Source of the DNA: Gemmata obscuriglobus
GTDB lineage: Bacteria > Planctomycetota > Planctomycetia > Gemmatales > Gemmataceae
NCBI RefSeq assembly: GCF_008065095.1
Contig: NZ_CP042911.1
Location: 2,670,001-2,702,000, forward strand
DNA length: 32,000 nucleotides
Reading direction: 5' to 3'
The notes under the pieces are model-generated. The model made no database searches, was not told the origin of the DNA, and saw nothing but the letters and a program-made list of their open reading frames with translations. Below are positions 1 through 29,371 of the stretch, piece after piece (positions within the stretch are counted from its first letter, which is position 1; every line of letters begins with the position of its first letter). A program made the position numbers and the translations under genes.

Positions 1-66
1 CCCGCCGGAGTCGCGGGGGAAGAAGTCCGACAAGTGACGCGGTGGCGGGGTGGGTCGCAAAGGCAC

Positions 67-157
67 GCCGAACCCGGCGCTGCACCTGACACCGCCATCG
101 GATCTGCGTTATGATGCTCACTCGATCCTGGCGGTGCAGGTGAGCTATTCGTTCGGC
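67..157 (+). repeat. attC-like site 1 (91 bp)
   Basis: GCCGAAC-ccggc-GCT-g-CACCTG-a-CACCGCC-[33-nt loop]-GGCGGTG-CAGGTG-AGC-tattc-GTTCGGC. The outer 7-mers are exact reverse complements. The inner 7+6+3 bp stem has two single-base bulges on the 5' arm. GGAGG lies at 162-166 and ATG at 175. Confidence 0.7.
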
Positions 158-174
158 CACAGGAGGGCTCGGGG

Positions 175-639
175 ATGTCGTGGTTCCCGGACATGGGAAC
201 GGCTTGCATGATCGCCCACGGGGATCACGTCCGTGCGGTCGGCTGGCTGTCCGACCAGCACCCGTTCCCGACGGGCGACACACCGCCCGAGTTCCTGGCG
301 CGGCTGAAGGAGTTCTGCCGGCGGTGGGACGAAGGGTTGGGGCCGCTGGTCTGGGATGTCTTCATGGGACCGCACCGCTGCGAGTTGTGCGGCCGGTGCG
401 TGGCCAGTGGCAACATCGGGGTGCCGGCAGGGGGTGTGCTGTTCGCCGCCCCGGAGATGATCGCCCACTACGTCGAGGTTCACAAGTACGCCCCGCCGGC
501 CGAGTTCGTAGCGGCCGTGCTGTCGGCGCCGCTGCCCGGCACCAGGGAGTACGCGGTGGCGGTGGCGGCGTTCCGAGCCGTCGCGCTCCAGCAACAACTC
601 GGCGAGCTGTATCGGCCGGGTCAGCCACCGCGAGCGTAG
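175..639 (+). CDS. Cassette 1: hypothetical protein, 154 aa
   Basis: ATG lies 8 nt after GGAGG. The ORF fills the space between attC-like sites 1 and 2. It contains a HRCELCGRC Cys cluster. I recognise no family. Confidence 0.6.
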   Translation: MSWFPDMGTACMIAHGDHVRAVGWLSDQHPFPTGDTPPEFLARLKEFCRRWDEGLGPLVWDVFMGPHRCELCGRCVASGNIGVPAGGVLFAAPEMIAHYVEVHKYAPPAEFVAAVLSAPLPGTREYAVAVAAFRAVALQQQLGELYRPGQPPRA

Positions 640-648
640 CAAAGGCCG

Positions 649-741
649 GCCGAACCGGGCGCGGCACCTGACACCGCCGGCTGATATGCGACGTGCCGAT
701 CGTCCGTGGTGGCGGTGCCGGTGAGCTATTGTTCGTTCGGC
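649..741 (+). repeat. attC-like site 2 (93 bp)
   Basis: GCCGAAC-cgggc-GCG-g-CACCTG-a-CACCGCC-[loop ggctgatatgcgacgtgccgatcgtccgtggt]-GGCGGTG-CCGGTG-AGC-tattgttc-GTTCGGC. It starts 9 nt after the stop at 639. The next ATG is at 761. Confidence 0.7.
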
Positions 742-760
742 AACCAATGGGGGGGGCACC

Positions 761-1903
761 ATGCGACACGGCCTACTTGCTCTGGCGCTTCTGTTCGCCC
801 CGGTCGCGGCACGCGCGGACGAGAGCGAAGACGCTGCGGTCAAGGCTGTGGAAAAGGTCTATGGGAAAGTGCTTCGTGACGCCAACCAGGTCATCACAGG
901 TGTCGATCTCTCTGCGGGAGCTGCCCAAGGGCACCGGGTGACGGACGAGGAGCTGAAGGAATTGCTGCCCCTCAAGAGCCTGACCTCCATCGACCTTTCC
1001 CACACGGGCGTGACAAACGCGGGACTGAAGGTGCTCGTAGCCTTCAAAAGCCTCACGACCTTATCTTTGCACGACACCGGGATCACGGACGCCGGTTTGA
1101 AGGAGCTGGCACCGCTCAAGAACCTCACCGCCTTCAACCTGTCCAACACGAAGGTAACGGACACCGGTCTGAAGGAACTAACAGCAATCAGGAATCTCAC
1201 CGCTCTTCACTTGCGAAAGACAGAGATCACGGACGCCGGCCTGAAGTCACTGCCACCCATGAAAGATCTCACCACCCTTGACCTGTCCGACACGAAGGTT
1301 ACGGACGCCGGTCTGAAGGCGCTGGCACCGCTCGAGCGGTTGACGAACCTCTACCTGTACAACACGGAGGTCACGGACACCGGATTGAAGGAACTGGCTC
1401 CGTCGAAGAACCTCGCCGTCCTGCTCCTGTACAACACGAAGGTCACAGACGCGGGGCTGAAGGAACTGGCTCCATTAAAGAGTCTCTCAGTCCTCGTCTT
1501 GGGCGAAACGGAGGTTACGGATGCGGGATTGAAGGAGCTGGCTCCACTCAAGAACCTCACGGCTCTCAACCTGTACGGCACGAAGGTTACGGACGCGGGG
1601 GTAAAGGAACTCGCGCCATTTCAGAACCTCACCCTACTCGACCTGAGCGGCACGAATGTTACAGACGCGGGAATTAAGGAACTGGCGCGATTCAAGAACC
1701 TCGCCCACCTCGAGCTGTCCTCCACAGCGGTAACGGATGTCGGCTTGAAGGAGCTGGCATCACTCAAGAAGCTCACCAAACTATTCCTGATTAGTACGAA
1801 GACCACATTCGCCGGAATTAAAGAGTTCCAAAAAGCCGCGCCCAAATGCGATGTCTGGAACACCCTGAGTCTTAAAGGCCAGCCCGCGCTTGGGAAGTGG
1901 TAA
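761..1903 (+). CDS. Cassette 2: secreted leucine-rich-repeat protein, 380 aa
   Basis: N-terminal signal-like MRHGLLALALLFAPVAARA. Twelve consecutive 24-aa units fit xLKELAPLKNLTxLxLxxTxVTDA. G+C is visibly lower (one line counted at 50%). Confidence 0.85.
   Translation: MRHGLLALALLFAPVAARADESEDAAVKAVEKVYGKVLRDANQVITGVDLSAGAAQGHRVTDEELKELLPLKSLTSIDLSHTGVTNAGLKVLVAFKSLTTLSLHDTGITDAGLKELAPLKNLTAFNLSNTKVTDTGLKELTAIRNLTALHLRKTEITDAGLKSLPPMKDLTTLDLSDTKVTDAGLKALAPLERLTNLYLYNTEVTDTGLKELAPSKNLAVLLLYNTKVTDAGLKELAPLKSLSVLVLGETEVTDAGLKELAPLKNLTALNLYGTKVTDAGVKELAPFQNLTLLDLSGTNVTDAGIKELARFKNLAHLELSSTAVTDVGLKELASLKKLTKLFLISTKTTFAGIKEFQKAAPKCDVWNTLSLKGQPALGKW
950..1813 (+). repeat. 12 x 72-bp tandem coding repeats (LRR units) inside the LRR gene
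   Basis: Periodicity read from the translation: residues 64-351, 12 units of 24 aa. Confidence 0.8.
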
Positions 1904-1908
1904 TGGCC

Positions 1909-2200
1909 CTACTGGCGGCACAGGTTATATCGGCGTGCGAAGTACCATAAGGCGCCCAAGTGGTTCCTGGGGCACTTGGAGAAGGTGAGTGTCTTCCGCA
2001 CGAATCGGGCACACCGTTGCCGCAGTGTGAGCCAGAATCGCTCGATGTGGGCGGTGAGGCCAGTGACCTTGCGCACGGCTCGATGCCGGGCGCGGGGAAT
2101 GGCGGCCCGGCACGCGGGCAGCAAGTCGGTGTACACGGTGACCCCGGCCCGGTACCCCCGAGGTAACGCCCCCAAGAGCCGCCAGGCGATCGGAGCCGTT
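1909..2200 (-). pseudogene. IS1-family transposase C-terminal remnant
   Basis: The minus-strand translation ...VYTDLLPACRAAIPRARHRAVRKVTGLTAHIERFWLTLRQRCARFVRKTLTFSKCPRNH... follows the IS1 InsB C-terminal pattern (TD..Y....H...K...T..IER.NL.LRQ..AR..RK.L.FSK). The N-terminal two-thirds of a transposase and any inverted repeats are absent. The upper boundary is approximate. Confidence 0.6.
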
Positions 2201-2263
2201 TCGGTCACCATCGGCCTCGTCGTGGGTGTGGTCGGATGGCTCAGCCCCTCCATGGCGCCGGTT

Positions 2264-2354
2264 GCCGAACCCGGCGTGGCACCGGACACCGCCGGCTGAT
2301 ATGCGACGCGCCGCTCATCCGGTGATGGCGATGCAGGTGAGCTGCTAGTTCGGC
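2264..2354 (+). repeat. attC-like site 3 (91 bp)
   Basis: GCCGAAC-ccggc-GTG-g-CACCGG-a-CACCGCC-[loop ggctgatatgcgacgcgccgctcatccggtgat, nearly identical to the site 2 loop]-GGCGATG-CAGGTG-AGC-tgcta-GTTCGGC. AGGAG lies at 2360-2364 and ATG at 2374. Confidence 0.7.
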
Positions 2355-2373
2355 GACGTAGGAGAAGGCACCG

Positions 2374-2712
2374 ATGGGGCGCTCGCTGGCGTCACGGGTT
2401 AAGATCATCGGTCCGGCGTTTGGGGTGGGTGCGGCGTTGTCCGCCCTGGCCGCCGCCAGCGGCGCGAGCAAGATGGGCTGGGGGCTCGGCGACTTCGCCT
2501 TCGTGTGGGGGTCGGTCCTGGCTGGGCCATTTTCGGGACTCTGGTTCGCGACGGGGTGGGGGATGGCCGACGCGGTGGGGTGGGCCATCCCTTGCGGGTT
2601 GGCTATCGTCTGTCACCCGGCGCGGCCGGGCGGGCTTACCGGGCTGGTCAGTGGGATCGGAATTGCCTTGTGGATACTGCTTGGGTTCGCGCTCACCTAC
2701 GACGGGGTGTAA
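2374..2712 (+). CDS. Cassette 3: small Gly/Ala/Trp-rich integral membrane protein, 112 aa
   Basis: AGGAG lies 9 nt upstream. There are 3-4 hydrophobic segments. The ORF exactly fills the interval between attC-like sites 3 and 4. Confidence 0.55.
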   Translation: MGRSLASRVKIIGPAFGVGAALSALAAASGASKMGWGLGDFAFVWGSVLAGPFSGLWFATGWGMADAVGWAIPCGLAIVCHPARPGGLTGLVSGIGIALWILLGFALTYDGV

Positions 2713-2719
2713 CCCAAAC

Positions 2720-2831
2720 GCCGAACCGGTCGCTGCACCTGACCCGGTCACGTAATTCGTTTCTCGCTGCTCACCGCACTTCGGTATAGCCGGTTGTGAT
2801 CCCGGCCGGGCCGGTGAGCTTTAAGTTCGGC
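2720..2831 (+). repeat. attC-like site 4 (112 bp, longer loop)
   Basis: GCCGAAC-cggtc-GCT-g-CACCTG-a-CCCGGT...GCCGGG-CCGGTG-AGC-tttaa-GTTCGGC. The innermost stem differs from sites 1-3 on both arms but still pairs (compensatory change). It starts 7 nt after the stop at 2712. GGAGG lies at 2845-2849 and GTG at 2857. Confidence 0.65.
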
Positions 2832-2856
2832 GGCTGAAGGTGAAGGAGGGGCGCAC

Positions 2857-3354
2857 GTGGCCGAGCCGACGCAGATCAACCTGTCGCGGGCGTTGAAGCT
2901 CAAGAACCGCGTCGTCCACCGGCTGTCGCAGTTCGACACCCAGATCGCGACGTACAACAGCGTGATCGAAGACAACCAAGAGTACGATGTGCGTCAGCTT
3001 TACAAAGCCCGGATGGCGCTGGCCGAGCAGTTGGTCAAGCTGAAGGTGGCCATCAACGCCGCCAACCAGCCGATCCAGGGTCTGATCTTTGAACTGGCCG
3101 AGTGCAAGGCGCTCGTCGCCATGCTCGGTAAGGTGAACACCCGGCACGGGCCGTCGGTCGAGGGATTCACGGGCGCGAGGACGAACTACGTGGCCCAATT
3201 CCGCAAGCCGGACATCGACGCGGAAGTCCGGCGGGTGGAGAGGGAGATCGACCGTCTCCAGGACGAACTGGACCGGTTCAACCACCGCACACTGATCGCC
3301 GTCGAGGCGTCCCTGCTGGCGGACTCCGATCCGCCACCGGACGCGATCCGGTGA
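2857..3354 (+). CDS. Cassette 4: helical/coiled-coil protein, 165 aa, possibly DIP1984-family-like
   Basis: GTG lies 7 nt after GGAGG. The layout recalls DIP1984-type proteins from memory: ALKLKNRV...L start, central INAAN, C-terminal ID.LQDELD.FNH.T. The family assignment is tentative. Confidence 0.6.
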   Translation: MAEPTQINLSRALKLKNRVVHRLSQFDTQIATYNSVIEDNQEYDVRQLYKARMALAEQLVKLKVAINAANQPIQGLIFELAECKALVAMLGKVNTRHGPSVEGFTGARTNYVAQFRKPDIDAEVRRVEREIDRLQDELDRFNHRTLIAVEASLLADSDPPPDAIR

Positions 3355-3632
3355 TCCACCGGCCAGGCACGGCGTTCGTCGGACGAAGGCCGGGGCAGGC
3401 ATCGAGGTTGGGCCGCCCGCGCGGGCGGCCGTCGGCGGGCAACCGCCGGCCACGTGGCAACCTCACAATCGTAACGTGCCCGATCCGGACGCGGATACCG
3501 ATCTCAAGCCGCAAGGTTCCCGCTCCGACTGGTGACGAGCGATTCGATGATTGAGCCTGTAGCCCGCAACCCTCATTCCCGTCTGTCTCGACCGGAGTTC
3601 GGGTGCGCCGTGTCCTGGACACACAAAGGCAG

Positions 3633-3722
3633 GCCGAACTCGGCGCGGCACCCGACACCGCCGCTGATCCGGGGCCTGCCGCTCATCGTGTGATGGCGGT
3701 GCAGGCGAGCGGCAAGTTCGGC
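3633..3722 (+). repeat. attC-like site 5 (90 bp)
   Basis: GCCGAAC-tcggc-GCG-g-CACCCG-a-CACCGCC-[loop gctgatccggggcctgccgctcatcgtgtgat]-GGCGGTG-CAGGCG-AGC-ggcaa-GTTCGGC. GGAGG lies at 3726-3730 and GTG at 3740. Confidence 0.7.
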
Positions 3723-3739
3723 GAGGGAGGCGGGACGCA

Positions 3740-4207
3740 GTGGGCCACGAGGTGTACATCCACCGAGCCGACACGTGGGCCGAGAGCGATCGTTACCCGA
3801 TCACTCCGGACGAGTGGCTAGCGGTCATCGCGTCCGACCCGGAGTTGCGACCCGACCCCGACCACGAGTTCCAAGCCCTGTGGCCCGGCCCGTGCAAGTA
3901 TCCGGACGGGACGTGGTTCGCCTGGAGTGAGGGGGCGGTTTACACCAAGGGCCCGGACCGGCCGACGGTCGCCAAGATGTTGCAAATGGCCCGCCGGCTT
4001 GGGGCGCGGGTGCAGAGCGGGCACGGGGAGTTCTTCAACCGGCCCGAGGACATGCCCAGCGAGGAGGAGGCCGCGGCGTGGCAGGCCCGCAACTCCTCGG
4101 CCCCCCTGAGCCGGTGGGCACTCTTGGGGTGCGTGGTGGCGGGGGGAGCCCTGCTGTTCGTGTTCGGGGTCGGGGTCGTGACGATTTGCCGCTGGGTGTG
4201 GAGTTGA
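3740..4207 (+). CDS. Cassette 5: hypothetical protein with a C-terminal transmembrane anchor, 155 aa
   Basis: GTG lies 9 nt after GGAGG. The C-terminal segment WALLGCVVAGGALLFVFGVGVVTICRWVW is hydrophobic. The stop is 3 nt before attC-like site 6. Confidence 0.6.
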   Translation: MGHEVYIHRADTWAESDRYPITPDEWLAVIASDPELRPDPDHEFQALWPGPCKYPDGTWFAWSEGAVYTKGPDRPTVAKMLQMARRLGARVQSGHGEFFNRPEDMPSEEEAAAWQARNSSAPLSRWALLGCVVAGGALLFVFGVGVVTICRWVWS

Positions 4208-4210
4208 CCC

Positions 4211-4322
4211 GCCGAACCGGACACTGCCCCCGACCGCCGGCTCATCGGCGCTTTGCAGCATTACCTGTTTTAGGGTCGGTGATTGGCGCACCGGCGGCAG
4301 GCGGTCTCTTTGCCCGTTCGGC
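4211..4322 (+). repeat. attC-like site 6 (112 bp, most diverged)
   Basis: GCCGAAC-cggac-ACT-g-CCCCCG-a-CCGCCGG-[long loop]-CCGGCGG-CAGGCGG-TCT-ctttgccc-GTTCGGC. The inner 7-bp stem again differs in sequence but pairs perfectly. It starts 3 nt after the stop at 4207. Confidence 0.6.
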
Positions 4323-4331
4323 AACACGAGG

Positions 4332-5024
4332 GTGCGGCGATTGCGTACCGTGTACTTCGTCACGCGGCGTCCGAACAGCGAATTCGTGGGCGCATGGACG
4401 CTCGGCGAGATTCGAGCGCGGCTCGCGTCGGGCGAGCTCCGGGCGGCACTATTCGCCACCGAATCCGATGGGCGCAGCTTCAGCCGGTTCCAACGATCCG
4501 GGGCTCAGGCCCGCTGGCGAACATTGGCAGAACTGCTTGAGGAGCCCCCGTCGCCGGTTCATCCCGAAACCGCTCGGCCGCCCGGCCCCGGCCGGTGGCT
4601 GTCCTCGTACTTCATCGGTGGCGGGGCGTCCTGGCTGCTGTTGGTGGTCGGGCAGTTCGTGGCGGCGCTGGCGTGTATCGCCGTCCCGATCGGCGTGGTG
4701 TACCAACTTGGGCAGTTGTCCGAGGCCGAGCAGGTGATCGAGCGCGCTGGCCGGGCCGGCGACACTCGGGTCGGCCAAGCGGCAGCGGGCATTTCGGTCG
4801 CTCGCGGCGCGGTTGTCGTGGCCGGCGTGCTGGCCTTCTGTGTCAACGCGGCGCTGCTCATCGTGTTCAAGCGAGCCAACACGCTCGCGCAGATCGCCGC
4901 GGATCAAGACGCCGATAACGAACAGGTGTGGCACGCGATCGCGGACTTGCGGTCGCGGGTGACGCCTGCCCCGAGCGGCCGACAAGACGCCGAGCCCGGC
5001 GCTGCACCGGGCACCGCCGACTAA
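4332..5024 (+). CDS. Cassette 6: membrane protein, 230 aa, with a possible GYF_2-like N-terminal domain
   Basis: N-terminus VYFVTRRPNSEFVGAWTLGEIRARLASGEL, followed by two long hydrophobic segments. The start is uncertain. TTG at 4341 (8 nt after GAGGG, 18 nt after the R' box) fits the pattern of the other cassettes better than GTG at 4332. Confidence 0.55.
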   Translation: MRRLRTVYFVTRRPNSEFVGAWTLGEIRARLASGELRAALFATESDGRSFSRFQRSGAQARWRTLAELLEEPPSPVHPETARPPGPGRWLSSYFIGGGASWLLLVVGQFVAALACIAVPIGVVYQLGQLSEAEQVIERAGRAGDTRVGQAAAGISVARGAVVVAGVLAFCVNAALLIVFKRANTLAQIAADQDADNEQVWHAIADLRSRVTPAPSGRQDAEPGAAPGTAD

Positions 5025-5078
5025 TTCGGGACGCAGCGCTCGTCCGGTGGTGGCGGTGCCAGTGGGCTATCGTTCGGC
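4989..5078 (+). repeat. attC-like site 7 (90 bp); overlaps the 3' end of the preceding ORF
   Basis: GCCGAGC-ccggc-GCT-g-CACCGG-g-CACCGCC-[loop gactaattcgggacgcagcgctcgtccggtggt]-GGCGGTG-CCAGTG-GGC-tatc-GTTCGGC. The variant first box still pairs through a G.T wobble. The TAA stop of ORF 4332..5024 lies in the loop. Confidence 0.65.
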
Positions 5079-5226
5079 AGTGTGGCGAGCCCCGCGGAGG
5101 GGCGACGCGGCAGACGGGTGACCGCGTCGCTGGTGCGGAATGGGTGTCGCACTCCGACGTGGCCCGGGGCGCGCGAGACCGGCCGCCGTTTTACCGTTTG
5201 CACTTCCAGCGACCGGAGGAGATCCC

Positions 5227-6141
5227 ATGCGGCGCGGGTTTACCCTGATCGAGATCGTCGTCGTGATCGCCATCCTCGCGGTCCTCATTGCGCTCCTCCT
5301 GCCGGCCGTGCAGAAGGTCCGGGCCGCCGCCATCCGGACCAGGAGCGCGAACAACATCCGGCAGATCAACCTCGCACTGCACAACTACGCGGGCGACCGC
5401 CGGGTGCTGCCGACGATCGATGGCAACCCGCGGCCGGTCTACATCGAATCGCTCGGCGTCTGGGGGAGGCAGTCCGACCCGCTGGTCTTCATGGCGCTGC
5501 TGCCGCACATCGAGTCCTCCGGCTATCGGCAGGACCAGGCGTACCCGAGCGTGCCGATGTACCGCAGCCCGGCCGACCCGTCGGCCGCCCTCTACCCACC
5601 GGACGGGCCGGCGGCCCTGTTCCACCACACGTCGTACGCGGCCAACGCGCAGGTGTTCGTCGGTCGCACGTCGCTCGACCGCGTCGCCCCGGACGGCCTG
5701 TCCCAGACCATGTTCTTCGCGGAACACTACCTGGCCTGCGCCAAAAGCTCGTTCACGTACAGCTCCGCCGATCCCGATAGGCACCTCATCCGGCGGGCGA
5801 CGTTCGCAGACGGCGGCCCGGTCCTGGCGGGGGTCAACCCCGGTGACGTGTATCCCGTCACCTCCGGCACACCCGCCGTGACCCGGCCGAGCCGGGACGG
5901 CGTGACGTTCCAGGTTCGGCCCCGACTCTGGGCCTCTGAGAAGCCGTTGAGCGCAAGCCCGCCTCCGCCGCCCGGCGCCGGGGACTGCGACCCATCCCTC
6001 CCGCAGACGCCGCACGAGGGCGGGATGCTCGTCGGGTTGGGCGACGGGAGCGTCCGCACCGTCGGCCGATCGGCCAGCGTGGAGACCTTCTGGGCGGCGG
6101 TGACTCCGGCCGGCGGCGAGGTCATCGGCAGCGACTGGTGA
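5227..6141 (+). CDS. Cassette 7: DUF1559-type protein with a prepilin-type N-terminal cleavage/methylation domain
   Basis: [35 protein letters not shown] is the type IV pilin-like leader and helix typical of the planctomycete DUF1559 family. The C-terminus carries [12 protein letters not shown] (H-X9-DG-like). GGAGGAG lies 5 nt upstream of the ATG. Confidence 0.85.
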
Positions 6142-6178
6142 GCGGGCCGAACGTCCGGGCGGGCCGCTGCACAGGCAC

Positions 6179-6256
6179 GTCGAACCCGGCACCGCACCCG
6201 CCTGGGCCGCATCGCTCGTCCGGTGATGCCGGTGCAGGTGAGTTTGATTGTTCGGC
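6179..6256 (+). repeat. attC-like site 8 (variant subfamily), preceded by an extra GCCGAAC box at 6146-6152
   Basis: GTCGAAC-ccggcaccgcacccgcctgggccgcatcgctcgtccggtgatgccggtgcaggtgagtttgatt-GTTCGGC. The 3' half (GGTGCAGGTGAG...GTTCGGC) matches the other sites. The 5' half recurs at 6997-7034. Confidence 0.55.
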
Positions 6257-6348
6257 CGCCGCTGACGAATCTCCGGTGCGAACCTCAAAACGTTGTTGCG
6301 GGTCATTAGATCTTGCTCTGGTTACCTGCGACTCCCCGAGGCTCGCCG

Positions 6349-6981
6349 ATGTCTGAACCTTCGCCGATCCCCCCCGTTGTCCTAGTAGAGTTAAAGAACG
6401 TCCGGGACCAAGTCTGGGACGTCTTCGGGCATTGGAACCTTTTCACCGGCCTGTTCGCGGATCAAGACACGGTGAAGATCCTTGCCTGGGCGTTCAACCG
6501 CGGTGCCGGTGGCTTGATCCACCAAGCGGTGCGTACCGAGATCGCTGTCGGTCTTGGCAGGTTGTTGGACCCTGCAGTTGATCGGGTCAAGAAGCAGCCG
6601 AGGCACAACCTGACTGTAGAGCGGATGGTCAGCCACGTTGAGACGCTGCGGCCAGAGCAAGCAGACGGCATGCGGGTTGAGCTCGCAGAGGCTCGCAACC
6701 ACTTCGAACCTCTGCGGCGGTGGCGCGACAAGTATCACGCGCATCGTGATCATGCGGTGGCAATGGGGCTCGAACCGATCGCTCAGGTCGATCGTGAAGC
6801 GGTCAACACTGTGCTCGCAGTTCTCGGCAAGCTGATGAACCGAGTGTGCGAGGCTCTGGATAGCCCAATAACAGACTATCGGCCTGCGTACAAAGGGGCC
6901 GCAGACCAGTTGCTTGCATTTGTGCGCCCGATGTATCAGGCCAGCCGTGAGCGGTTGAGGATTGCTGAGGCAGGCTTGTAG
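6349..6981 (+). CDS. Cassette 8: hypothetical protein, 210 aa, with an Rx4-6H (HEPN-like, AbiU2-type?) motif
   Basis: ATG lies 7 nt after GAGG. RDKYHAH at 6724-6744 fits R-[DN]-K-x-x-A-H. About 57-58% G+C on two counted lines, against about 68-70% in the flanks. Confidence 0.6.
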   Translation: MSEPSPIPPVVLVELKNVRDQVWDVFGHWNLFTGLFADQDTVKILAWAFNRGAGGLIHQAVRTEIAVGLGRLLDPAVDRVKKQPRHNLTVERMVSHVETLRPEQADGMRVELAEARNHFEPLRRWRDKYHAHRDHAVAMGLEPIAQVDREAVNTVLAVLGKLMNRVCEALDSPITDYRPAYKGAADQLLAFVRPMYQASRERLRIAEAGL

Positions 6982-6996
6982 CCGAGTTGCTCGTAG

Positions 6997-7034
6997 GTCG
7001 AACCCGGCACCGCACCGGCCTGGGCCGCATCGCT
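6997..7034 (+). repeat. Truncated attC-like half-site (5' half only); probable distal end of the array
   Basis: GTCGAACCCGGCACCGCACCgGCCTGGGCCGCATCGCTt matches 6179-6216 with 2 mismatches in 38 nt. No matching 3' arm or GTTCGGC follows. An odd GCCGAAC-aggg-GTTCGAT lies at 7062-7079. Confidence 0.55.
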
Positions 7035-7286
7035 TTTCGTCGCCGCCTCTCACGCACCCACGCCGAACAGGGGTTCGATCCCTTCGGACCGGGTCCCGTG
7101 GATCACCGCTTGCGAGAACATCGCGTCGATGCTGTCGAGGAACCGCAGGCGGTGACCGCCCCGGACTCGTCGCACAGTTGAACCGGTTGGCCCAGCCCGC
7201 TCAGTTTGCCCCGCATCGCGGCGTCGAGAATCACCTTGCTCGCGTGTCGCCTCCTGACCGCACGATGCCACCCGCGGTCAACAGAA

Positions 7287-7306
7287 CGGGGGGCCGAACC
7301 CCCCCG
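7287..7306 (-). terminator. GC hairpin downstream of the isomerase-like gene
   Basis: CGGGGGG-ccgaa-CCCCCCG lies 13 nt beyond the stop (7319) of the minus-strand gene. The trailing T-run is weak (ttctgtt). Confidence 0.4.
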
Positions 7307-7318
7307 TCGCGAACCACG

Positions 7319-8512
7319 TTACGCCTTCAGCGCGTCGTCGTGGCGGCCCCAGCTCGGCGGCAGGTCGGCCTTCCGGCAGTTCGCCAGCGCCGTCTTCGCG
7401 CCGGCGAACTTGTCCGCGTCGTTGTCCTCCCACTCGATGCTCACCGCGCCCTCGTACCCGACCCGGTTCAGCTCGATGAAGATCTCCTCCAGCGAGTTGG
7501 CGTCGCGCTGTGTGCCGGCGGTCACGAACTTCCAACCGTTGGTCCAGTGGCCCATCGACCGGTGCCCGCCCAGCAGCCCGCCGCGGCAGTGCTCGCGCTC
7601 CACCTGCACGCCCTTCACGTGCGCGCAGTGGACGTACTTCTGGAACTCGCGGATGAACTGGATCACCGACACGTTCTGCCATTCCATGTGCGAGCCGTCG
7701 AGGTTGAACCCCACGACGCCCTCGTACCCAGCCTTGTTCATGTGGTTGATGTAATCCACGGCGCTCTCGAGGTCGCCCATCGCGCGCTCGGACGGGTGGC
7801 ACTCCAGGTCGTAGGTCACGCCCTGCTTCTTGCACTCGTCCCACACCGGGCCGAACCGCTCCACCAGCAGTTCCAGCGACACCTGGTACACGTCCGGCAG
7901 GGCGTGGCCGTCGATCTCGCCGGGGAGCCACGGGAACAGGAACCAGTGGCTCCAGCAGTGGGCGGGGCTGCCCACGAAGCCGGGCACCGCGACGCGGCGG
8001 TTCTGCAACTTGGACAGGTGCCCGGCGTACCGCACCGCGGCCAGCAGGTCGCGCTGCGCCTCCTTGTGCATCAGCGCGCCGACCTCGTCGGGCACGTACA
8101 TCGGGTTGGTGCGCGGCGGGTTGTTGCCGGCGGCACGCCACGCCTTGTACGCGCCCCGAGCCTCGCCCTTCCCGGAGCAGAAGTTGAGGGTCTTGGCGCT
8201 CGGCTCGTCGCCCAGCACCTGCCCCTGGAGGTGCGTGGCGACGGTGAAGATCTCCAGCCCGTGCGCCTTCGCCAGCGCGACCCGCTCCTTGGCGTACTCG
8301 GCGGCGCCGGCGTCGGTGTCGCACCGGCGCAGGTCGAGTTCCCAGGACGCCTCTTCCCAGCCGTCGAAGCCGGCCCCGGCGATGAATTTGAGCCACTCCG
8401 ACTCGGGCACCCCGCCGAACTGGCCGCGGACGAGCCCGATCTGGTGGTAGCTGCCCTTGCCGGGCCGGTGAACCGGCTTGCCGCTCTCGTCAACGGTCTG
8501 CGCGAATCCCAT
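7319..8512 (-). CDS. Sugar phosphate isomerase/epimerase (xylose isomerase-like TIM barrel), 397 aa
   Basis: The long ORF has coding-like composition. Its length and motifs (...AGFDGWE..., ...HLQGQVLGDEP..., ...VHCAHVKG..., ...GAVSIEWED...) resemble the AP-endonuclease-2/xylose-isomerase-like fold family common in planctomycetes. Confidence 0.75.
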   Translation of the reverse strand: MGFAQTVDESGKPVHRPGKGSYHQIGLVRGQFGGVPESEWLKFIAGAGFDGWEEASWELDLRRCDTDAGAAEYAKERVALAKAHGLEIFTVATHLQGQVLGDEPSAKTLNFCSGKGEARGAYKAWRAAGNNPPRTNPMYVPDEVGALMHKEAQRDLLAAVRYAGHLSKLQNRRVAVPGFVGSPAHCWSHWFLFPWLPGEIDGHALPDVYQVSLELLVERFGPVWDECKKQGVTYDLECHPSERAMGDLESAVDYINHMNKAGYEGVVGFNLDGSHMEWQNVSVIQFIREFQKYVHCAHVKGVQVEREHCRGGLLGGHRSMGHWTNGWKFVTAGTQRDANSLEEIFIELNRVGYEGAVSIEWEDNDADKFAGAKTALANCRKADLPPSWGRHDDALKA

Positions 8513-8680: not shown

Positions 8681-9757
8681 ATGACCGACCGCGAAGCGTT
8701 CATCGAAGCCATTGCCGCCCGCCGGGACGACGGCACCGTGCGGCTGGCGTTCGCCGACTGGCTCCAGGAGCACGGCGAGGAAGACCGCGCTGAGTTCGTG
8801 CGACTGTCGCACGAACTCGCCGCGTGTTCCCACGAGGCGGAACTCCGGCAGCTCCGAAAACAGGTTCTCAACCTGCTGGAGACCCACGGCCCGCGGTGGT
8901 TCGACCCGTTCTGTCGCGCGCTCGGTCAGGAATCCGTTTTCGGCCGCCGCGGGCGGCGCTCGGCTCAGGCCTATTGGACGGGCCGACTACGCCTCGACAA
9001 TCCGTCTTACCAACGCGATTTCGATTCGGGCCAAATCGACCTGAATGAACTGTCGGCCGGCGTGTTCTCGGGCATCAAACTGCGGCACGGCTTTGTGCAG
9101 CAGGCGACCGTCCTTCTCGCATCCGAGTACCCTGTTGGTGACGTGGCAGGTGCGTTACGATGCGAGCCGGTCGAGGAGTTGACCATCCGAACGGCCACCG
9201 CCCCGGACCAGTGGCGCCGCTTGAACGTACCGTCCCTGGCCCGCATCCAAAAGCTCGCCGTCGAAGCGCCGCCCGAACCTACCCCCCAAGCAATTGAAGT
9301 GTTCGACGAAGTGCTCGCGGGAGAGCACTGGTCAGGAGTGCATGACTTCCACCTCGAGTGCTCAGACGCCGATCTTGAACTCCAGGGCGGATACGCAGCC
9401 CGGCTGCTACGGGCGCCACTACTGTCAGGCCTCAAAACGCTCTGGCTCCGTGACACGCAACACGACCTGATACCCCTGGTATGTTCGCCACGGTTGACGT
9501 CACTCCGCTGCTTCACCGCCCTGGGCTGTGAACCTGCTGACGCGGTTTTTCGTGCTCTTCGTGATGCGTCGTTCCGGCCGAACGTGGACATGATTATACT
9601 TGCACTCACGTGCCACAGATTTGACGAGAGTGTCGAGGCGCTCGCCTCGGCTCCGTGGCCGAAGCTACGTATTCTTATGCTTGAGGGGGTGACCGACGCC
9701 AGCGTCCGTCATCTGCTACCTCTCGTTCCTCAACTCACTTACCTAGGACTTACGTAG
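8681..9757 (+). pseudogene. TIGR02996-type N-terminal domain / LRR protein, 5' part, interrupted by an IS at 9743/9744
   Basis: MTDREAFIEAIAARRDDGTVRLAFADWLQEHGEEDRAEFVRL is the TIGR02996 signature as I recall it. The frame runs into the IS inverted repeat and stops at TAG 9755-9757 (last 4 codons are IS-derived). Confidence 0.8.
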
Positions 9758-10811
9758 TTGACTTTTGGGTAAGTAGGTATGTAGGTGCGGCGAGGTAGGT
9801 TCGCACCGCTTCGCGCACGATGGCCGTCTTGGCCGCGAACCAACTGACGCCGGACTTGAGCCGGTGCCACTCGAGCCGCAGGAACGCGCGGATCGCGAGC
9901 CCGATGTGGACCGCTTGGGCCCGGCTCATGCGCACCTGGCACCGGTCCACGTGGCAATGCTGCTTGAGGCCCCGGTGATACTCCTCGATGCCCCACGCGT
10001 GCCCGGCCAGAACCGCACGAGTGGCCTCGTCCATGTCGAGGTCGTTGGTGATCCAATGCTCCGTGCCCCCATCACCGGTGGCGATCCGGAACGCCTTCAC
10101 CAATCCGAACCCCTCCAGGTGCACCACCGTACCGGCGGCCCCGATCGGGCACCCCTCGATGGCCCGATTGCCCGTGCGATCCGGGTTCACCCGCCGGTTG
10201 CTCCGCACCCGGGTCAGGAAGTGCCACCCCAGGGCCCGCACCGCCTTCAGGTTGTCCTTGCCCGAGTACCAGGTGTCGAACAGTACCACCCGGGGCGACA
10301 GGTCCCGTCCCTTGGCGACCGCCAGCATGGCTCGGAAGTGGTCGTTCTTGGTCTCGGCTCGGGCCGGGTCGGCGAGCCGGTAATCACACGGTACCAGGGC
10401 GGCCCCGTCGGTCCACAGCAGGGTCACCAGCCCGATCCCGCTCACCACCCGGCGGTGCCGCCCGGACCAGCACCGGCGCACCAGCCCCATGTGCCGGGCG
10501 AACGGCTTGTCCAGCACCGAGTCGTCGAGCACCACGGCACCGCCCGGGCGGACCGACGACCGGGCTTCGTCCCACAACGCCGCTGGGTCCGGTTCCAGCC
10601 GGTGCAGCAGTCGGGTGAACGCATCATGCGCGGGCGCCGTCGGATGGTCCGGTTGGGCTCGCGCGGCTTCCGCGGCCGACGCCACCTTGGGGGTGGCGAT
10701 CAGGAATTGGATGTAGTCCTCGGCGCTCGCACGTGGTGCGTTCATGGCCCGATCATAGACCAACAACACACCATGCGCAAATCCTGCGCCAGCGCAACTG
10801 CGTAAGTCCTA
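9744..10811 (-). mobile_element. IS701/IS4-like insertion sequence, 1068 bp
   Basis: Terminal inverted repeats TAGGACTTACG[T/C]AGTTG at 9744-9760 and 10795-10811 (16/17). Direct 5-bp duplication TTACC at 9739-9743 and 10812-10816. A single DDE transposase ORF lies inside. Confidence 0.85.
9750..10769 (-). CDS. DDE transposase (IS701/IS4-like), 339 aa
   Basis: ...EDYIQFLIATPKVASAAEAARAQP....APAHDAFTRLLHRLEPD..., ...VVLDDSVLDKP..., ...VLFDTWYS..., ...WGIEEYHRGLKQ... is the typical DDE layout. An alternative ATG start is at 10745. Confidence 0.85.
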   Translation of the reverse strand: MLLVYDRAMNAPRASAEDYIQFLIATPKVASAAEAARAQPDHPTAPAHDAFTRLLHRLEPDPAALWDEARSSVRPGGAVVLDDSVLDKPFARHMGLVRRCWSGRHRRVVSGIGLVTLLWTDGAALVPCDYRLADPARAETKNDHFRAMLAVAKGRDLSPRVVLFDTWYSGKDNLKAVRALGWHFLTRVRSNRRVNPDRTGNRAIEGCPIGAAGTVVHLEGFGLVKAFRIATGDGGTEHWITNDLDMDEATRAVLAGHAWGIEEYHRGLKQHCHVDRCQVRMSRAQAVHIGLAIRAFLRLEWHRLKSGVSWFAAKTAIVREAVRTYLAAPTYLLTQKSTT

Positions 10812-18079: not shown

Positions 18080-19417
18080 TTACGTGTCCGTCGAATCGGC
18101 GTCTGCGCGGGCCTCCCACTCCCGTTCCGACTCGTCCGCGTCCTCGGTCCGCGGCGCCGGCACGGCCGAAACGCCCAACCCCTTGATCAACAGGGGCAGC
18201 GTCAGCCCTTGACCGACGAGGGTGGCAAAGATGACCGCGAACGTGAGCAACTGGATCAGGTCGCGCCCCGGGAACGGTCTCCCGTCTTCGGTCGTGAGCG
18301 GCAGCGCCAGCGCCGCGGCGAGCGACACCGCGCCGCGCATCCCCGTCCACCCCACCACCGTCACACTCCGCCACGACGGGTACGGCCCCGCGCACCCGAG
18401 CCGGTTGTCAACCCAGCGCGGCACGTACGCGCCCGGGAACATCCACAGCAGCCGCGCGACGATCGTCGCCCCGCACACGCCGGCGGCCCCGATGGCCAGT
18501 TCGCGGGGCGTGTGGGTGGTGTCCCCGAACTGCTCCAGGATCTGCCGCAGCGCGAACCCCACGAGGATGAACACCAGCCCGTTCAGCAGGAACTCGATCC
18601 ACTCCCACACGGCCCGGGCTTCCTCGAACAGTTCGTGCGTGAACACCTCCTCGCACCGGTTCCCGATCCACAGCCCGGCGGACACCGCCGCCAGCACCCC
18701 CGACAGGTGGAGGTGTTCCGCGGTCAGGTAGACCGCGAACGGCGTCAGCAGGGTGACCGTGATCACGAGCTTGCTGTCCGCCACCCCGCTCCGATCGAGC
18801 CACCGGTGGAACCGGTACACGAGCCACCCGCCCGCCACGCCGACCCCGACCCCGCCGGCGCTGACCAGCACGAACTCCCAGCCGGCACCCGCCAGGGAGA
18901 ACGCGCCGGTCGCCACGGCCGCGACCGCGAACCGCAACGCGACCAGCGCGGTCGCGTCGTTGACGAGGCTCTCGCCCTCAAGGATGGTAACGATCAGCCG
19001 CGGCACCCGGAGCCGCTGGGTGACCGCGACCGCCGCGACCGCGTCCGGCGGTGAGACGATCGCCCCGAGCACGAACGCCACGGCCCACGGCAGATCGAGC
19101 AGGTAGTGGGCCGCCGCCGCGACCGCCGCCGTGGTGAACAGCACGAGCCCCACCGCCAACAGCGTGATGGCCCGTAGTTGCGCTCGGAACTCGGGCCACG
19201 GGGTCCGGAACGCCGCCGCGTACAGCAGCGGCGGCAGGAACAGCAGGAACACGACCTGGGGGTCGATGCGGAACCCTGGCACCCACGGCTGGAGCCCCAG
19301 CAGCAGCCCGCCGACGACCAGGAAGATCGGTTCCGCCACCCTCAGCTTGCGCGCGATCAGGGCCAGCGCCACCGTGACCGCCAGCAGGGCCAAAACCAGT
19401 TCGACCGGGTGAAACAC
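18080..19417 (-). CDS. Na+/H+ antiporter (CPA1 / NhaP-type)
   Basis: About 445 aa with 10 or more TM segments and typical ...AIVSPPDAVAA...RL..ILEGESLVNDA... motifs. GTG at 19417 lies 6 nt after GGAGG. The upstream part of the track ORF overlaps the divergent promoter region. Confidence 0.85.
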   Translation of the reverse strand: MFHPVELVLALLAVTVALALIARKLRVAEPIFLVVGGLLLGLQPWVPGFRIDPQVVFLLFLPPLLYAAAFRTPWPEFRAQLRAITLLAVGLVLFTTAAVAAAAHYLLDLPWAVAFVLGAIVSPPDAVAAVAVTQRLRVPRLIVTILEGESLVNDATALVALRFAVAAVATGAFSLAGAGWEFVLVSAGGVGVGVAGGWLVYRFHRWLDRSGVADSKLVITVTLLTPFAVYLTAEHLHLSGVLAAVSAGLWIGNRCEEVFTHELFEEARAVWEWIEFLLNGLVFILVGFALRQILEQFGDTTHTPRELAIGAAGVCGATIVARLLWMFPGAYVPRWVDNRLGCAGPYPSWRSVTVVGWTGMRGAVSLAAALALPLTTEDGRPFPGRDLIQLLTFAVIFATLVGQGLTLPLLIKGLGVSAVPAPRTEDADESEREWEARADADSTDT

Positions 19418-19665
19418 CGCGCACCTCCGTGACTCGCATTCACACGAGCATACCCGGTGCGCGTTGACGCCGACAGCCCGACCCGCGTACCCTCTCCTCA
19501 ACCCCGGAGGTTCCGCCATGCCATACCCCCGCGCGATCGCACCGCTCCTCGTGCTGCTCTCCGCGTCAACCGCGTGGGCCGACACGATCACCCTCGTCGC
19601 CGGCGGCGGTAACGGACCCGACGGCGCGGAAGCGACCACCGCCAAGCTGCTCCAACCGTTCGGCG
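19305..19665. repeat. Direct repeat copy A (361 bp): antiporter 5' end, divergent intergenic region and NHL gene 5' end
   Basis: Aligns without gaps to 23746..24106 (offset 4441). I counted 12 mismatches. Confidence 0.9.
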
Positions 19666-19694
19666 GTGCGAGGTGTGGGCGGAAGCGTATTTGA
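19518..19694 (+). pseudogene. Truncated 5' stub of the NHL-repeat gene (49 homologous codons, then unrelated tail)
   Basis: MPYPRAIAPLLVLLSASTAWADTITLVAGGGNGPDGAEATTAKLLQPFG matches the N-terminus of 23959..25035. Homology ends at 19665. Confidence 0.75.
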
Positions 19695-19784
19695 CGGCAG
19701 GTGCGGAGATCTGTGGGGCGGCGGGTACGTGGATGTGTTGAGCTTTTCAGACGTGATTCTTGCTCGCTTCAATGTGTTGTGGCA

Positions 19785-21756: not shown

Positions 21757-23064
21757 CAGGGCAAACGCACTCAATCCTCGGGATTTTTCAGTAGTACCTG
21801 TTCGAGGTAGGTATTATCCCATCCGGCCTTGAGTCGCCGGTTCTTGATCCCACATTTGGCGTTTGCCTTCTTCAACATCGCCAAGGCGATCTTGCGCACG
21901 AGGGCCATATTCTGCGGGCCGTGCCCTTCACGGAGTCGGTGGTCGTCTTCTCGGAACGCGACATCCAGCACCCAATGGCATGAATTCTCGATGCACCAAT
22001 GAGCCCGGATCCACGTTTGGAACCGCTTGGCCGATGCCTTCCGCGAGCTGATGTAATACCGCACCTCGTCGCTCGTCCTACCGGCGACCGTGCGGCTGCT
22101 GACGAGCACCACGACGGACCGCAACCGGGGCCACACATTCCGGTCCCGGATCGACTCCAGGTCGTCGATCACGAAGCAGAACCGCATCTCCTCGCGCCCG
22201 TGGCCCGTTCCTTCGTTGAGGTCGGTCGAGCGGCCCGCGTAGCTCGCCTCTAGGGCCCCCTCGGCCAACCGCTGGATGTCCTCGAGCAGCCGCGGCTGGT
22301 TGTCCTTGACCGCCAGCAGGTAGTCCCCCTTGGCGGCCACGATCTGCTGGGCGATGTCCTTCTGGGTGCCCATCGCGTCGATGCTCACCAGGGCCCCCGC
22401 GAGGTCCAGCCGCTCCAGCAGTTCCGGGATCGCGGTGATCTCGTTGGACTTCTCGTCGGTCTTCACCTGGGCCAACGTGAGGCCCAACTGCTGAGCCCAT
22501 GCGCTGACGATGTGTGTGGCCTTGCGAGCCCCCGTGCCGGTGACCCGCTTGGACCCCCGCATGGTCTTCCCGTCGATCGGGATGTGGGGCACCCGGAGGC
22601 CCTCGGCGGCGTCCGCGACCCACGCCCGGAAGCACCGCCCGAACGCCTCCGGGCGGACCAGCGCGAACACCCGGTTGAGGGTGTCGTGGGACGGAATCCC
22701 GTTGCGCAGCGTCAGCCCCAGCCGGTCCCGGAACCAGGACTCCTTGGCCCGCGCGAACTCGGCGATCGACACGAAGTCATCGGCCCCGACGATCGTCCCA
22801 CAGGTCACGATCATGAGTACATCAATCAAGTCGTGGAAGCACTTCAACTCGACCCGCGGATCCGGGATCTGGGACAGGTACTCGATTAACGGGCGTGGGC
22901 CGGGGGCGGCACTCATCGGCAGACTCCGAGGCGGTGAGGGCGCGCCAGAATCATATGGAGGCGGGGCCGCACATGCGCAGGAGGCGAGCGATGGCCGCTC
23001 GATCACACGCCTCAAAATTAGCTAGAATCCAGCGATTCCTAGGGGATTGAGTGCGTTTGCCCTG
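21757..23064 (-). mobile_element. ISAs1-family insertion sequence, 1308 bp
   Basis: Perfect 21-bp terminal inverted repeats: CAGGGCAAACGCACTCAATCC at 21757-21777 and its reverse complement at 23044-23064. A 10-bp direct duplication TGTTCGTGTA lies at 21747-21756 and 23065-23074. Confidence 0.9.
21771..22916 (-). CDS. ISAs1-family transposase, 381 aa
   Basis: MSAAPGPRPLIEYLSQIPDPRVELKCFHDLIDVLMIVTCGTIVGADDFVSIAEFA... is the characteristic ISAs1 (H-repeat-like) N-terminus. ATG lies 7 nt after GGAG. About 67% G+C, unlike the neighbouring low-G+C DNA. Confidence 0.9.
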   Translation of the reverse strand: MSAAPGPRPLIEYLSQIPDPRVELKCFHDLIDVLMIVTCGTIVGADDFVSIAEFARAKESWFRDRLGLTLRNGIPSHDTLNRVFALVRPEAFGRCFRAWVADAAEGLRVPHIPIDGKTMRGSKRVTGTGARKATHIVSAWAQQLGLTLAQVKTDEKSNEITAIPELLERLDLAGALVSIDAMGTQKDIAQQIVAAKGDYLLAVKDNQPRLLEDIQRLAEGALEASYAGRSTDLNEGTGHGREEMRFCFVIDDLESIRDRNVWPRLRSVVVLVSSRTVAGRTSDEVRYYISSRKASAKRFQTWIRAHWCIENSCHWVLDVAFREDDHRLREGHGPQNMALVRKIALAMLKKANAKCGIKNRRLKAGWDNTYLEQVLLKNPED

Positions 23065-23745: not shown

Positions 23746-23858
23746 AGCCCGCCGACGACGAGGAAGATCGGTTCCGCCACCCTCAGCTTGCGCGCGATCA
23801 GGGCCAGCGCCGCCGTGACCGCCAGCAGGGCCAGGACCAGTTCGACCGGGTGAAACAC
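23746..23858 (-). pseudogene. 5' stub (about 37 codons) of the Na+/H+ antiporter gene
   Basis: VFHPVELVLALLAVTAALALIARKLRVAEPIFLVVGGL matches the N-terminus of 18080..19417. Homology ends at 23746. Confidence 0.75.
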
Positions 23859-24106
23859 CGCGCACCTCCGTGACTCGCATTCACACGAGCATATCCGGTG
23901 CGCGTTGACGCCGACAGCCCGACCCGCGTACCCTCTCCTCAACCCCGGAGGTTCTCCCGTGCCATACCCCCGCGCGCTCGCACCGCTCCTCGTGCTGCTC
24001 TCCGCGTCAACCGCGTGGGCCGACACGATCACCCTCGTCGCCGGCGGCGGTAACGGACCCGACGGCGCAGAAGCAAACACCGCCAAGCTGCTCCAACCGT
24101 TCGGCG
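23746..24106. repeat. Direct repeat copy B (361 bp)
   Basis: See copy A. This copy is contiguous with the full-length NHL gene and carries only a stub of the antiporter gene. Confidence 0.9.
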
Positions 24107-28759: not shown

Positions 28760-29371
28760 TCACCACCGGTTCCCGGGCGGGTGCCGGCCGTCGTCGTCTT
28801 CGTTGTCGTCCTCATCGACGTTCCGTCTCCGGGGCGACCGGCCGCGGCCGTTCCGCCCGTCGTCGTAATCGTCGTCGTAATCGTCGCTCGCGTCGGTGTC
28901 GTAATCGTCGTCCCGGTAGCGTAACTCCAGCCGGCGGCTCAAATTCGAGACCTTCACCCAGTACAGAATCCAGCACACGAGCCCGCCCACGAACGCGGGC
29001 AGCCCGCAGTAGCCCAACACGAGGCTGAGCGCGCCCAGCGCGCTGGCCACGATGCCAAGGGTCTGCCCGTAGTCCTCGCCGCGCCGGTGCCACCCCCGCT
29101 CCCGGTGCTCGTCCCTGAGCGTCTCGGTCACGCGAATGATGGTGATAAAAATCCACACGAGGTTGAAGAACGGGATCAGGTTCAGCCACACCATCGCCGG
29201 CTCCATCGTCCGGTTAAGGGGGTGGCACTGAGCGAGCGCCCGCGAGAGGGTCAAAAGGTAGAAGATGCTGGCGACGAACAGCAGCAGGTAGAAGCCGCAC
29301 ACGCCCGCGATGACGGCCACCACAATCGCGTCCGGGCCGTTGTTTTGCGCGAGCAAGGTCGGGGGCGACAT
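28760..29371 (-). CDS. Integral membrane protein, 203 aa, paralog of 27197..27670 with an added Asp/Tyr/Arg-rich tail
   Basis: MSPPTLL... start, 7 nt after GAGGA. Contains VWLNLIPFFNLVW...VTETLRDE. The tail is RDDDYDTDASDDYDDDYDDGRNGRGRSPRRRNVDEDDNEDDDGR. The track start at 29401 would abut the acnA terminator. Confidence 0.65.
   Translation of the reverse strand: MSPPTLLAQNNGPDAIVVAVIAGVCGFYLLLFVASIFYLLTLSRALAQCHPLNRTMEPAMVWLNLIPFFNLVWIFITIIRVTETLRDEHRERGWHRRGEDYGQTLGIVASALGALSLVLGYCGLPAFVGGLVCWILYWVKVSNLSRRLELRYRDDDYDTDASDDYDDDYDDGRNGRGRSPRRRNVDEDDNEDDDGRHPPGNRW

Follow-up and report, generated by a model that had tools for sequence, protein, structure and literature searches.

Previous work has described integrons, attC models for particular taxa, and inverted integrases in Planctomycetes (PMC4889954, PMC8352920, PMC2426708). 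The attC sites carry extrahelical bases at positions 16 and 23/24, as in attCaadA7; the 6-bp stem between these bases is required for efficient IntI1 recombination, and the AAC triplet alone is conserved across all attC sites (PMC5027507). For Planctomycetes, an attC covariance model comprising 188 sites has been published (Ghaly et al. 2021, PMC8352920, supplementary file 3). Its consensus reads GCCUAAC AAuGC GUU G CAgCGG A ... GCUGAaC UucGuC GUUAGGC, with G at 62% and C at 33% in top-strand position 16, A at 69% in position 23, G at ~5% in R'' position 4 and C at ~7% in R' position 4 (PMC8352920). Our literature search found no description of a Gemmata obscuriglobus integron. Here we analyzed a 32-kb stretch of the G. 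obscuriglobus chromosome (NZ_CP042911.1, positions 2,670,001 to 2,702,000), hereafter the window, in which eight repeats are very probably genuine integron attC sites that delimit at least seven cassettes, located distally in a sedentary integron-type array of the chromosome. An original prediction, made from the letters of this stretch, had proposed that the repeats fold like attC sites; this was borne out by the geometry of the sites, the covariation of their stems, the organization of the array, the linkage that sites of this type show in related genomes to intI and attI, and the sharing of one cassette between species, all of which were observed in this study.

Site anatomy and covariation of the stems

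The eight repeats are imperfect palindromes of 78-112 nt each, all on the same (+) strand, and span positions 67-6256 of the window (Table 1). GTTCGGC forms the 3' end of all eight, while the 5' end is GCCGAAC in six of them, GCCGAGC in site 7 and GTCGAAC in site 8. The two variants, at 4989 and 6179, each pair with GTTCGGC through a single G.T wobble, as expected from the earlier description of the outer heptamers as complementary with wobble-compatible exceptions. We counted 37 occurrences of GCCGAAC or its complement in the window, where 11.5 +/- 3.3 would be expected; none of 100 shuffles reached this number, and the excess is due to the paired boxes in the first 6.3 kb.

Sites 1-7 follow a common plan. 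On the 5' side, R'' (7 nt) is followed by 5 nt, a 3-bp stem, a bulged G, a 6-bp stem, a bulged A (G in site 7), a 7-bp stem and the loop; on the 3' side the three half-stems return without bulges and lead through a spacer of 4-8 nt (9 nt in site 6) to R' (7 nt). This layout, 7-5-3-bulge-6-bulge-7-loop-7-6-3-spacer-7, is exact in sites 1, 2, 3, 4, 5 and 7, and its 5' part, 7-5-3-bulge16-6-bulge23-stem, is common to all eight sites. The original prediction had assigned a single layout to sites 1-7, which holds for sites 1-5 and 7 but only in part for site 6, where the inner stem CCGCCGG/CCGGCGG is intact and the 3-bp and 6-bp outer stems carry two mismatches each. Site 3 has one mismatch in each of its 3-bp and 6-bp stems, and in site 8 about 14 nt of the inner 5' arm are deleted. 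Site 1 is composed of R'' GCCGAAC, the spacer CCGGC, the arm GCT-G-CACCTG-A-CACCGCC, a 33-nt loop and R' GTTCGGC at 151-157; it terminates a cassette that starts upstream of the window.

The bulges of sites 1-7 lie at positions 16 and 23 with the 6-bp stem between them, and both are on the R''/L'' arm, in agreement with the earlier statement that they always occupy the 5' arm. Three inner-stem variants, CACCGCC/GGCGGTG, CCCGGTC/GGCCGGG and CCGCCGG/CCGGCGG, had been described as changing on both arms with the pairing kept; the sequences match that description and the stems covary. The unpaired spacers are conserved and non-complementary, with 5 nt of the form C[C/G]GGC on the 5' arm and a T-rich stretch of 4-8 nt, usually 5, on the 3' arm. 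The loop, in contrast to the earlier notion of a variable loop, is not freely variable: the sequence CGCTC(A/G)TCCGGTG(A/G)T is common to sites 2, 3, 5, 7 and 8. We also observed a motif outside the modelled attC, CAAAGGC(A/C), that abuts R'' on its 5' side in four of the eight sites (58-66, 640-648, 3624-3632 and 6170-6178); the copy at 6170-6178, at site 8, reads CACAGGC.

A covariance model, R1, was built from sites 1, 2, 3, 4, 5 and 7 with the proposed structure and was searched against the window with filters off. The model recovered just the eight + strand sites, with scores of 31-102 bits, and the next best match in the 32 kb scored 17.6 bits; sites 6 and 8 were found although they had been outside the seed. 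Rfam at its gathering thresholds gave no match in the window. A pattern scan for related loci, conducted with one genome per species, matched at least 120 stretches, mostly in Gemmata, Zavarzinella, Fimbriiglobus, Limnoglobus and other Planctomycetota. In the fetched loci, model R1 identified at least 331 sites at E < 1e-3 in 100 loci and at least 64 more in 19 further loci, and nearly all of these matches in the relatives (the same genera and other Planctomycetota) form same-strand arrays.

Two alignments were examined for covariation, A3 with 150 sites from close relatives and A4 with 150 sites from more divergent loci; both were obtained by fitting to the model, and this biases them in favour of the structure. 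In A3, 93.9% of the cells are paired, and double changes occur at 11 of the 23 pairs with 180 compensatory cells. In A4, 97.3% are paired, double changes occur at 15 of the 23 pairs with 428 compensatory cells, one pair shows all four Watson-Crick types, and the covariation score is 0.311 compared to 0.078 in shuffles. None of 500 shuffles scored as high in A3 or in A4, and pairing with slid partners reached 24-42% overall and 26-38% in A3. The alternative pair types are balanced at individual positions (GC 53 and UA 52; CG 73 and GC 70), and neither this balance nor the size of the effect is an alignment artefact. The covariation claimed in the original prediction is thus supported, with compensatory changes in 11 and 15 of 23 pairs, beyond all 500 shuffles. 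The two bulges are nearly fixed, with G in 145 and A in 141 of the 150 sites of A3, and G in 143 and A in 146 of the 150 sites of A4.

Cassette organization and linkage to integron integrases in related genomes

Each site is followed by one promoterless + strand open reading frame (ORF) with its own ribosome-binding site (Shine-Dalgarno), and the ORF stops 3-10 nt 5' of the next site or within it. The stop codon of the ORF preceding site 7 was correctly placed by the original prediction within the loop of that site. Cassette bounds were taken from the R' cores, from one inferred crossover between G and TT to the next, and the R'-to-R' spacings are 584, 1613, 477, 891, 600, 756 and 1178 bp. The cassette ORFs are mutually unrelated and encode a DUF7919 protein, a leucine-rich-repeat protein, four hypothetical proteins and a DUF1559/prepilin-type protein. 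The ORF of cassette 2 contains ten tandem 72-nt (24-aa) leucine-rich-repeat units, and similar leucine-rich-repeat cassettes occur in other Gemmataceae arrays (L006, L050 and L113).

Integron integrases, which are tyrosine recombinases with an IntI-specific domain, were searched for with tblastn and an IntI1 query, which gave 17 matches in 12 of the fetched loci, with ~50% identity in L029, L054, L090, L047, L101 and others. Against the NCBIfam profile TIGR02249 ('integron integrase', cut-off 265), the ORFs of L054, L090 and L048 reached 419-441 bits. The whole of the L054 protein can be aligned to Vibrio cholerae VchIntIA (PDB 2A3V, E = 7e-79), and its database homologues, one of them from Gemmata algarum, are annotated as integron integrases. 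An attI-like sequence, YTAATCAnnnGTTCGGC, lies ~155-195 nt after the intI stop in six loci (L054, L123, L090, L029, L101 and L047), where it precedes the first cassette, which is followed by an attC of this family; attC sites of this type begin ~0.5-1 kb 3' of intI in six related loci. The attI and attC of these loci carry the identical seven-base core GTTCGGC. In the Planctomycetota loci, intI is co-oriented with the cassettes, an 'inverted IntI' arrangement that has already been noted (PMC8352920), and the classical divergent arrangement of intI was seen in two betaproteobacterial metagenome-assembled genome contigs with the same site type.

Several further features of these regions were recorded. 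The attI-like regions at L054 4040-4107 and L123 11095-11165 have ~60 nt in common (cttgcaaaac..gcaatgtttgggga..ggtcaag.taatcac), and L054 has a second GTTCGGC 164 nt past the attI-like site, with no recognisable attC between the two. Palindromes of the form cccgtgtta..gcg....cgc..taacacggg follow the intI stop in G. algarum JC717 (L126 10970-11534, several copies) and in L054 (3925-3965), possibly as a terminator or regulatory site. Contact with the first extrahelical base is made by W157 in VchIntIA and by R168 in IntI1 (PMC2095811). The L054 integrase has R at the aligned position, like IntI1, and this pocket residue was of no help in explaining the C found at position 16 of our sites.

One cassette of the window is shared with another species. 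Window positions 2265-2831, comprising site 3, the 112-aa ORF and site 4, match contig_34 of G. algarum JC673 (L098 5839-5273, - strand) with 91% identity at the DNA level and 95.5% at the protein level. The two species have almost the same sequence in the cassette proper, which runs from after R' of site 3 to R' of site 4; the attC upstream of it is no more than a family member with a different loop. The similarity breaks just 5' of R'' of site 3 and directly after GTTCGGC, and the cassettes that flank the shared one are unrelated between G. obscuriglobus and G. algarum. This is how a cassette excised and inserted at the R' core would look.

The linkage to intI and attI bears on whether the repeats might instead be a generic dispersed palindromic family of the Gemmataceae, of the REP/BIME or MITE type, that was spread by a transposase or by recombination and is unrelated to integron integrases. 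Such a family could account for the high copy number in Gemmata genomes and for sequence sharing well past the stems, and the window does contain two DDE transposases and an IS1 fragment. We nevertheless consider this origin extremely unlikely, as the copies in the window all belong to a single 6.2-kb array, point the same way and number one per ORF, with none in the other 25.7 kb, there are neither target-site duplications nor terminal inverted repeats of the MITE type, the first array copy follows intI and attI in six independent loci, and the stems have evolved by compensatory change around a fixed 7-nt core.

The original prediction had held that the functional strand cannot be told by eye, and as far as wobbles are concerned this was right: top-strand G.T against A.C counts are 92 vs 62 in A3 and 22 vs 31 in A4 and do not discriminate the strands. 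The difference between bottom and top folding energy across 147 sites is similarly uninformative (mean -0.14 kcal/mol, p = 0.29). The anatomy, in contrast, does assign the strand. The strands of attC sites are distinguished by their unpaired features, the top strand bearing the extrahelical bases on the AAC arm and the bottom strand on the opposite arm (Nivina et al. 2016, PMC5027507). Because the bulges sit on the AAC-bearing arm (GCCGAAC) of the + strand, this strand would be the top one; the - strand would then be the recombinogenic bottom strand, its extrahelical bases being C16 and T23. The order of ORF and then attC agrees with this assignment, as does the way attI is oriented in the related loci. 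On the bottom strand, purines make up 55% and 71% of the two unpaired spacers and 55% of the loop, and a purine skew in the same direction has been reported for attC sites (PMC5027507).

The steps that such sites may undergo can be taken from the canonical integron pathway. As single-stranded DNA, the - (bottom) strand would fold into an imperfect hairpin in which the R box GCCGAAC is paired with GTTCGGC, followed by the stem and the variable loop. An integron integrase would bind the shape of this hairpin and cut between A and C of the bottom-strand GCCGAA/C, equivalent to the top-strand G/TTCGGC. Recombination of attC with attC would release the cassette as a circle, and recombination of attC with attI would re-insert it at an attI that has the same GTTCGGC core. 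The folding strand, the cleavage point and an active cognate integrase in G. obscuriglobus are the elements of this scheme that we infer.

A different role, in the transcript, as a terminator or stabiliser, was raised by the original prediction as well. On this view the repeats would work chiefly as RNA hairpins that end transcription or stabilise the upstream mRNA, and their likeness to attC would be coincidental or vestigial. The hairpins lie between co-oriented ORFs and would form in the + strand transcript too; the two strands are about equal in folding, and top-strand G.U pairs are slightly commoner in A3 (the same 92 vs 62). However, the terminator variant of this idea found no support, as none of the eight sites is followed by a T-run, and a scan of positions 1-7400 gave three terminator-like sites compared to 5.0 expected, none of them at the repeats. 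A function in RNA also leaves unexplained the conserved unpaired spacer, the bulges fixed at 16 and 23, the GTTCGGC core shared with the attI beside intI, and the cassette-sized units swapped between species. It is in our view very unlikely as the main function of the repeats, although the sites may have a secondary effect on expression or mRNA.

Opposing evidence and the present state of the array

Several results weigh against the identification of the repeats as attC sites. Tblastn at 1e-3 detected no integron integrase in the 32-kb window, and no G. obscuriglobus protein was present among the best 120 homologues of the L054 integrase and of the G. algarum integrase, which is weak evidence. 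The published Planctomycetes model recognized the sites poorly: scored only as a sequence-only p7 filter HMM that was rebuilt from the retyped supplement (the published cut-off of 60 bits applies to the full model), it gave 10.0 bits for site 1 (E = 0.022), 6.4 for site 4 and 3.6 for site 2, all of which are in register and weak. Folding of single sequences is a further point. The minimum-energy fold of site 1 as single-stranded DNA equals the proposed structure on both strands, with z = -5.2 and -6.2 relative to dinucleotide shuffles, but the other seven sites gave z = -0.1 to -2.4, which is not significant. Folding both strands had been suggested along with the original prediction, and it confirmed site 1 and left seven sites not significantly better than their shuffles; the weak scores of sites 2-8 arise because any sequence of 67% GC folds well. 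The family-level evidence for the structure is decisive, unlike the folding of single sites.

The remaining opposing points concern two bases. In every site, R'' has G and R' has C at R-box position 4, so that the extended form RYYYAAC/GTTRRRY, which is a consensus and no strict requirement, is not matched. The AAC/GTT triplets themselves are present, and the core positions are at least 94% invariant among 150 relatives. In describing a 'non-canonical core', the original prediction was correct about position 4 and overstated the departure, since AAC/GTT alone is universal and C occurs at ~7% in the published Planctomycetes model. On the bottom strand, attC sites usually have G as extrahelical base 16 and T as extrahelical base 23. 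T23 (top A) is as usual in the present family, but the first extrahelical base is C (top G) rather than G in >95% of the sites.

Whether the array is still active is a separate matter from the identity of its sites. A cluster of attC sites without an integron integrase is known as a CALIN (Cury et al. 2016, PMC4889954). The window resembles a CALIN in that it contains two or more attC sites, with no intI in the 25.7 kb downstream or the 66 nt upstream within the window, and differs in that the array runs past the 5' end of the window, where an intI may yet lie. It is possible, if somewhat doubtful, that the array is a relic of this kind, with true attC sites, a working integrase that has been lost, and cassettes that are now fixed chromosomal genes; this estimate concerns the activity of the array and not the identity of the attC sites. 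The lack of IntI in the window and of any G. obscuriglobus protein in the best 120 homologues of either integrase query would fit such a relic, as would the decay of the last site, the orphan half-site at 6146-6178, the weakening of site 6 and the insertion sequence (IS) debris in cassette 2. On the other hand, six of the eight sites are structurally intact (83-102 bits), and the integrase could lie upstream of position 1, where the array continues.

The distal sites are in decay. The orphan half-site directly before site 8, as far as its letters allow a judgement, points to sequence lost by deletion, or to recombination that failed, where the array ends. Within cassette 2, the transposase fragment at 1909-2289 has the look of IS debris. 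The array extends past the 5' end of the window and stops at 6256, where it is followed by an AbiU2-like ORF, ordinary chromosomal genes and IS elements. No match of model R1 above 11 bits was found in 6257-7400, a stretch that includes the AbiU2-like ORF. With this ORF, either the genes outside the array begin or the array has a further cassette, one that has lost its attC.

In the remainder of the window, a direct repeat of ~350 nt with 97% identity was observed at 19305-19700 and 23746-24140. It comprises the 5' ends of a Na+/H+ exchanger gene and of an NHL-repeat gene together with the intergenic region. Between its copies lies a 4.4-kb low-GC (55%) segment with an IS4-type DDE transposase (21771-23015, - strand), and the arrangement resembles an insertion with a segmental duplication on its two sides. 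Short periodic repeats of the CGTCGTCGTAATC type are present at 27802-27894 and 28843-28914 on the + strand, within - strand ORFs.

Table 1. Predicted attC sites, cassettes and neighbouring features in the window (position 1 is the first nucleotide of the 32-kb stretch; bits for attC sites are covariance model scores)
Feature	Position	Strand	Details
attC site 1	67..157	+ (top strand)	102.2 bits
attC site 2	649..741	+	91.5 bits
attC site 3	2264..2354	+	98.8 bits
attC site 4	2720..2831	+	54-nt loop, inner stem CCCGGTC/GGCCGGG; 83.2 bits
attC site 5	3633..3722	+	91.1 bits
attC site 6, divergent	4211..4322	+	30.8 bits, E = 7e-5
attC site 7	4989..5078	+	R'' GCCGAGC, second bulge G not A; 91.4 bits
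Orphan attC 5' half	6146..6178	+	GCCGAAC GTCCG GGC G GGCCGC..., directly 5' of site 8; read by eye, unscored by model
attC site 8, last, decayed	6179..6256	+	R'' GTCGAAC; 39.6 bits
Cassette 1	152..735	+	DUF7919 ORF 175-639 (Pfam 98 bits), ribosome-binding site AGGAGG 162-167, attC site 2
Cassette 2	736..2348	+	Leucine-rich-repeat ORF 761-1903 (Pfam LRR families), IS1-type fragment, attC site 3
IS1-type transposase fragment in cassette 2	1909-2289	-	DDE_Tnp_IS1, 25 bits; between leucine-rich-repeat ORF and site 3
Cassette 3	2349..2825	+	Hypothetical ORF 2374-2712 (112 aa), attC site 4
Cassette 4	2826..3716	+	Hypothetical ORF 2857-3354, ~280 nt non-coding, attC site 5
Cassette 5	3717..4316	+	Hypothetical ORF 3740-4207, attC site 6
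Cassette 6	4317..5072	+	Hypothetical ORF 4332-5024, TAA 5022-5024 in site 7 loop
Cassette 7	5073..6250	+	DUF1559/prepilin-type N-methylation ORF 5227-6141, attC site 8; Pfam SBP_bac_10 59.5 bits, N_methyl 28.3 bits
HEPN_AbiU2-like (abortive-infection) ORF	6313..6981	+	Pfam PF18734, 31.6 bits; after last attC
Second DDE transposase (DDE_Tnp_1/DDE_5)	9750-10769	-	3.5 kb past array end

Comparison with described integrons

Our analysis would annotate GobsT_22600 to about GobsT_22670 of G. obscuriglobus as mobile integron cassettes, and it documents a large, sequence-homogeneous subfamily of attC sites in the Gemmataceae. The published taxon-level model sees this subfamily weakly at the sequence level, and model-based surveys of cassettes may under-count it. 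The conserved C16 together with the core shared by attI and attC offers a natural test of base identity versus shape in the recognition of sites by the integrase. The current understanding of integrons is unchanged by these results. A more far-reaching proposal is that the GTTCGGC sites, the C as first extrahelical base, the YTAATCAnnnGTTCGGC attI and the co-oriented intI together mark a distinct integron recognition lineage centred on the Gemmataceae; we regard this as speculative and rather improbable. If it were true, the integrases of the lineage would have co-evolved to read C in place of the usual L-box G, and the lineage would be functionally insulated from the classical cassette pool.

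Compared to attCaadA7 and other attC sites of mobile integrons (Nivina et al. 2016, PMC5027507), the Gemmata sites have the same 7-nt R box with AAC/GTT, the same 5-nt unpaired central spacer, a 6-bp stem between extrahelical bases 16 and 23, the second of which is T on the bottom strand, a variable terminal loop, and the ORF 5' of the site on the top strand. They differ from the mobile sites in the R box GCCGAAC/GTTCGGC, which breaks RYYYAAC/GTTRRRY at position 4, and in having C rather than G as the first extrahelical base. They are also longer (78-112 vs ~60 nt), GC-rich and nearly uniform within the array, as in sedentary integrons.

The Planctomycetes model of Ghaly and co-workers has the same layout as the sites in the window and a near-identical L box (GUU-G-CAgCGG-A ... 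GCUGAaC in the model, GCT-G-CACCTG-A ... GGTGAGC in the window), and it differs in its R boxes, GCCUAAC/GUUAGGC, and in its spacer, which is AAuGC compared to CCGGC in the window. With the sedentary integrons, such as the VCRs of Vibrio cholerae and the arrays of Xanthomonas and Pseudomonas, the Gemmata loci have in common long arrays, cassettes that are mostly without known function, attC sites that resemble one another closely and are typical of the species, and ORFs whose stop codons lie against or inside the attC. Unlike in those integrons, intI of the related Gemmataceae loci is co-oriented with the cassettes and not divergent from them. The Gemmata sites are a divergent sub-type of a known class and not a new class.

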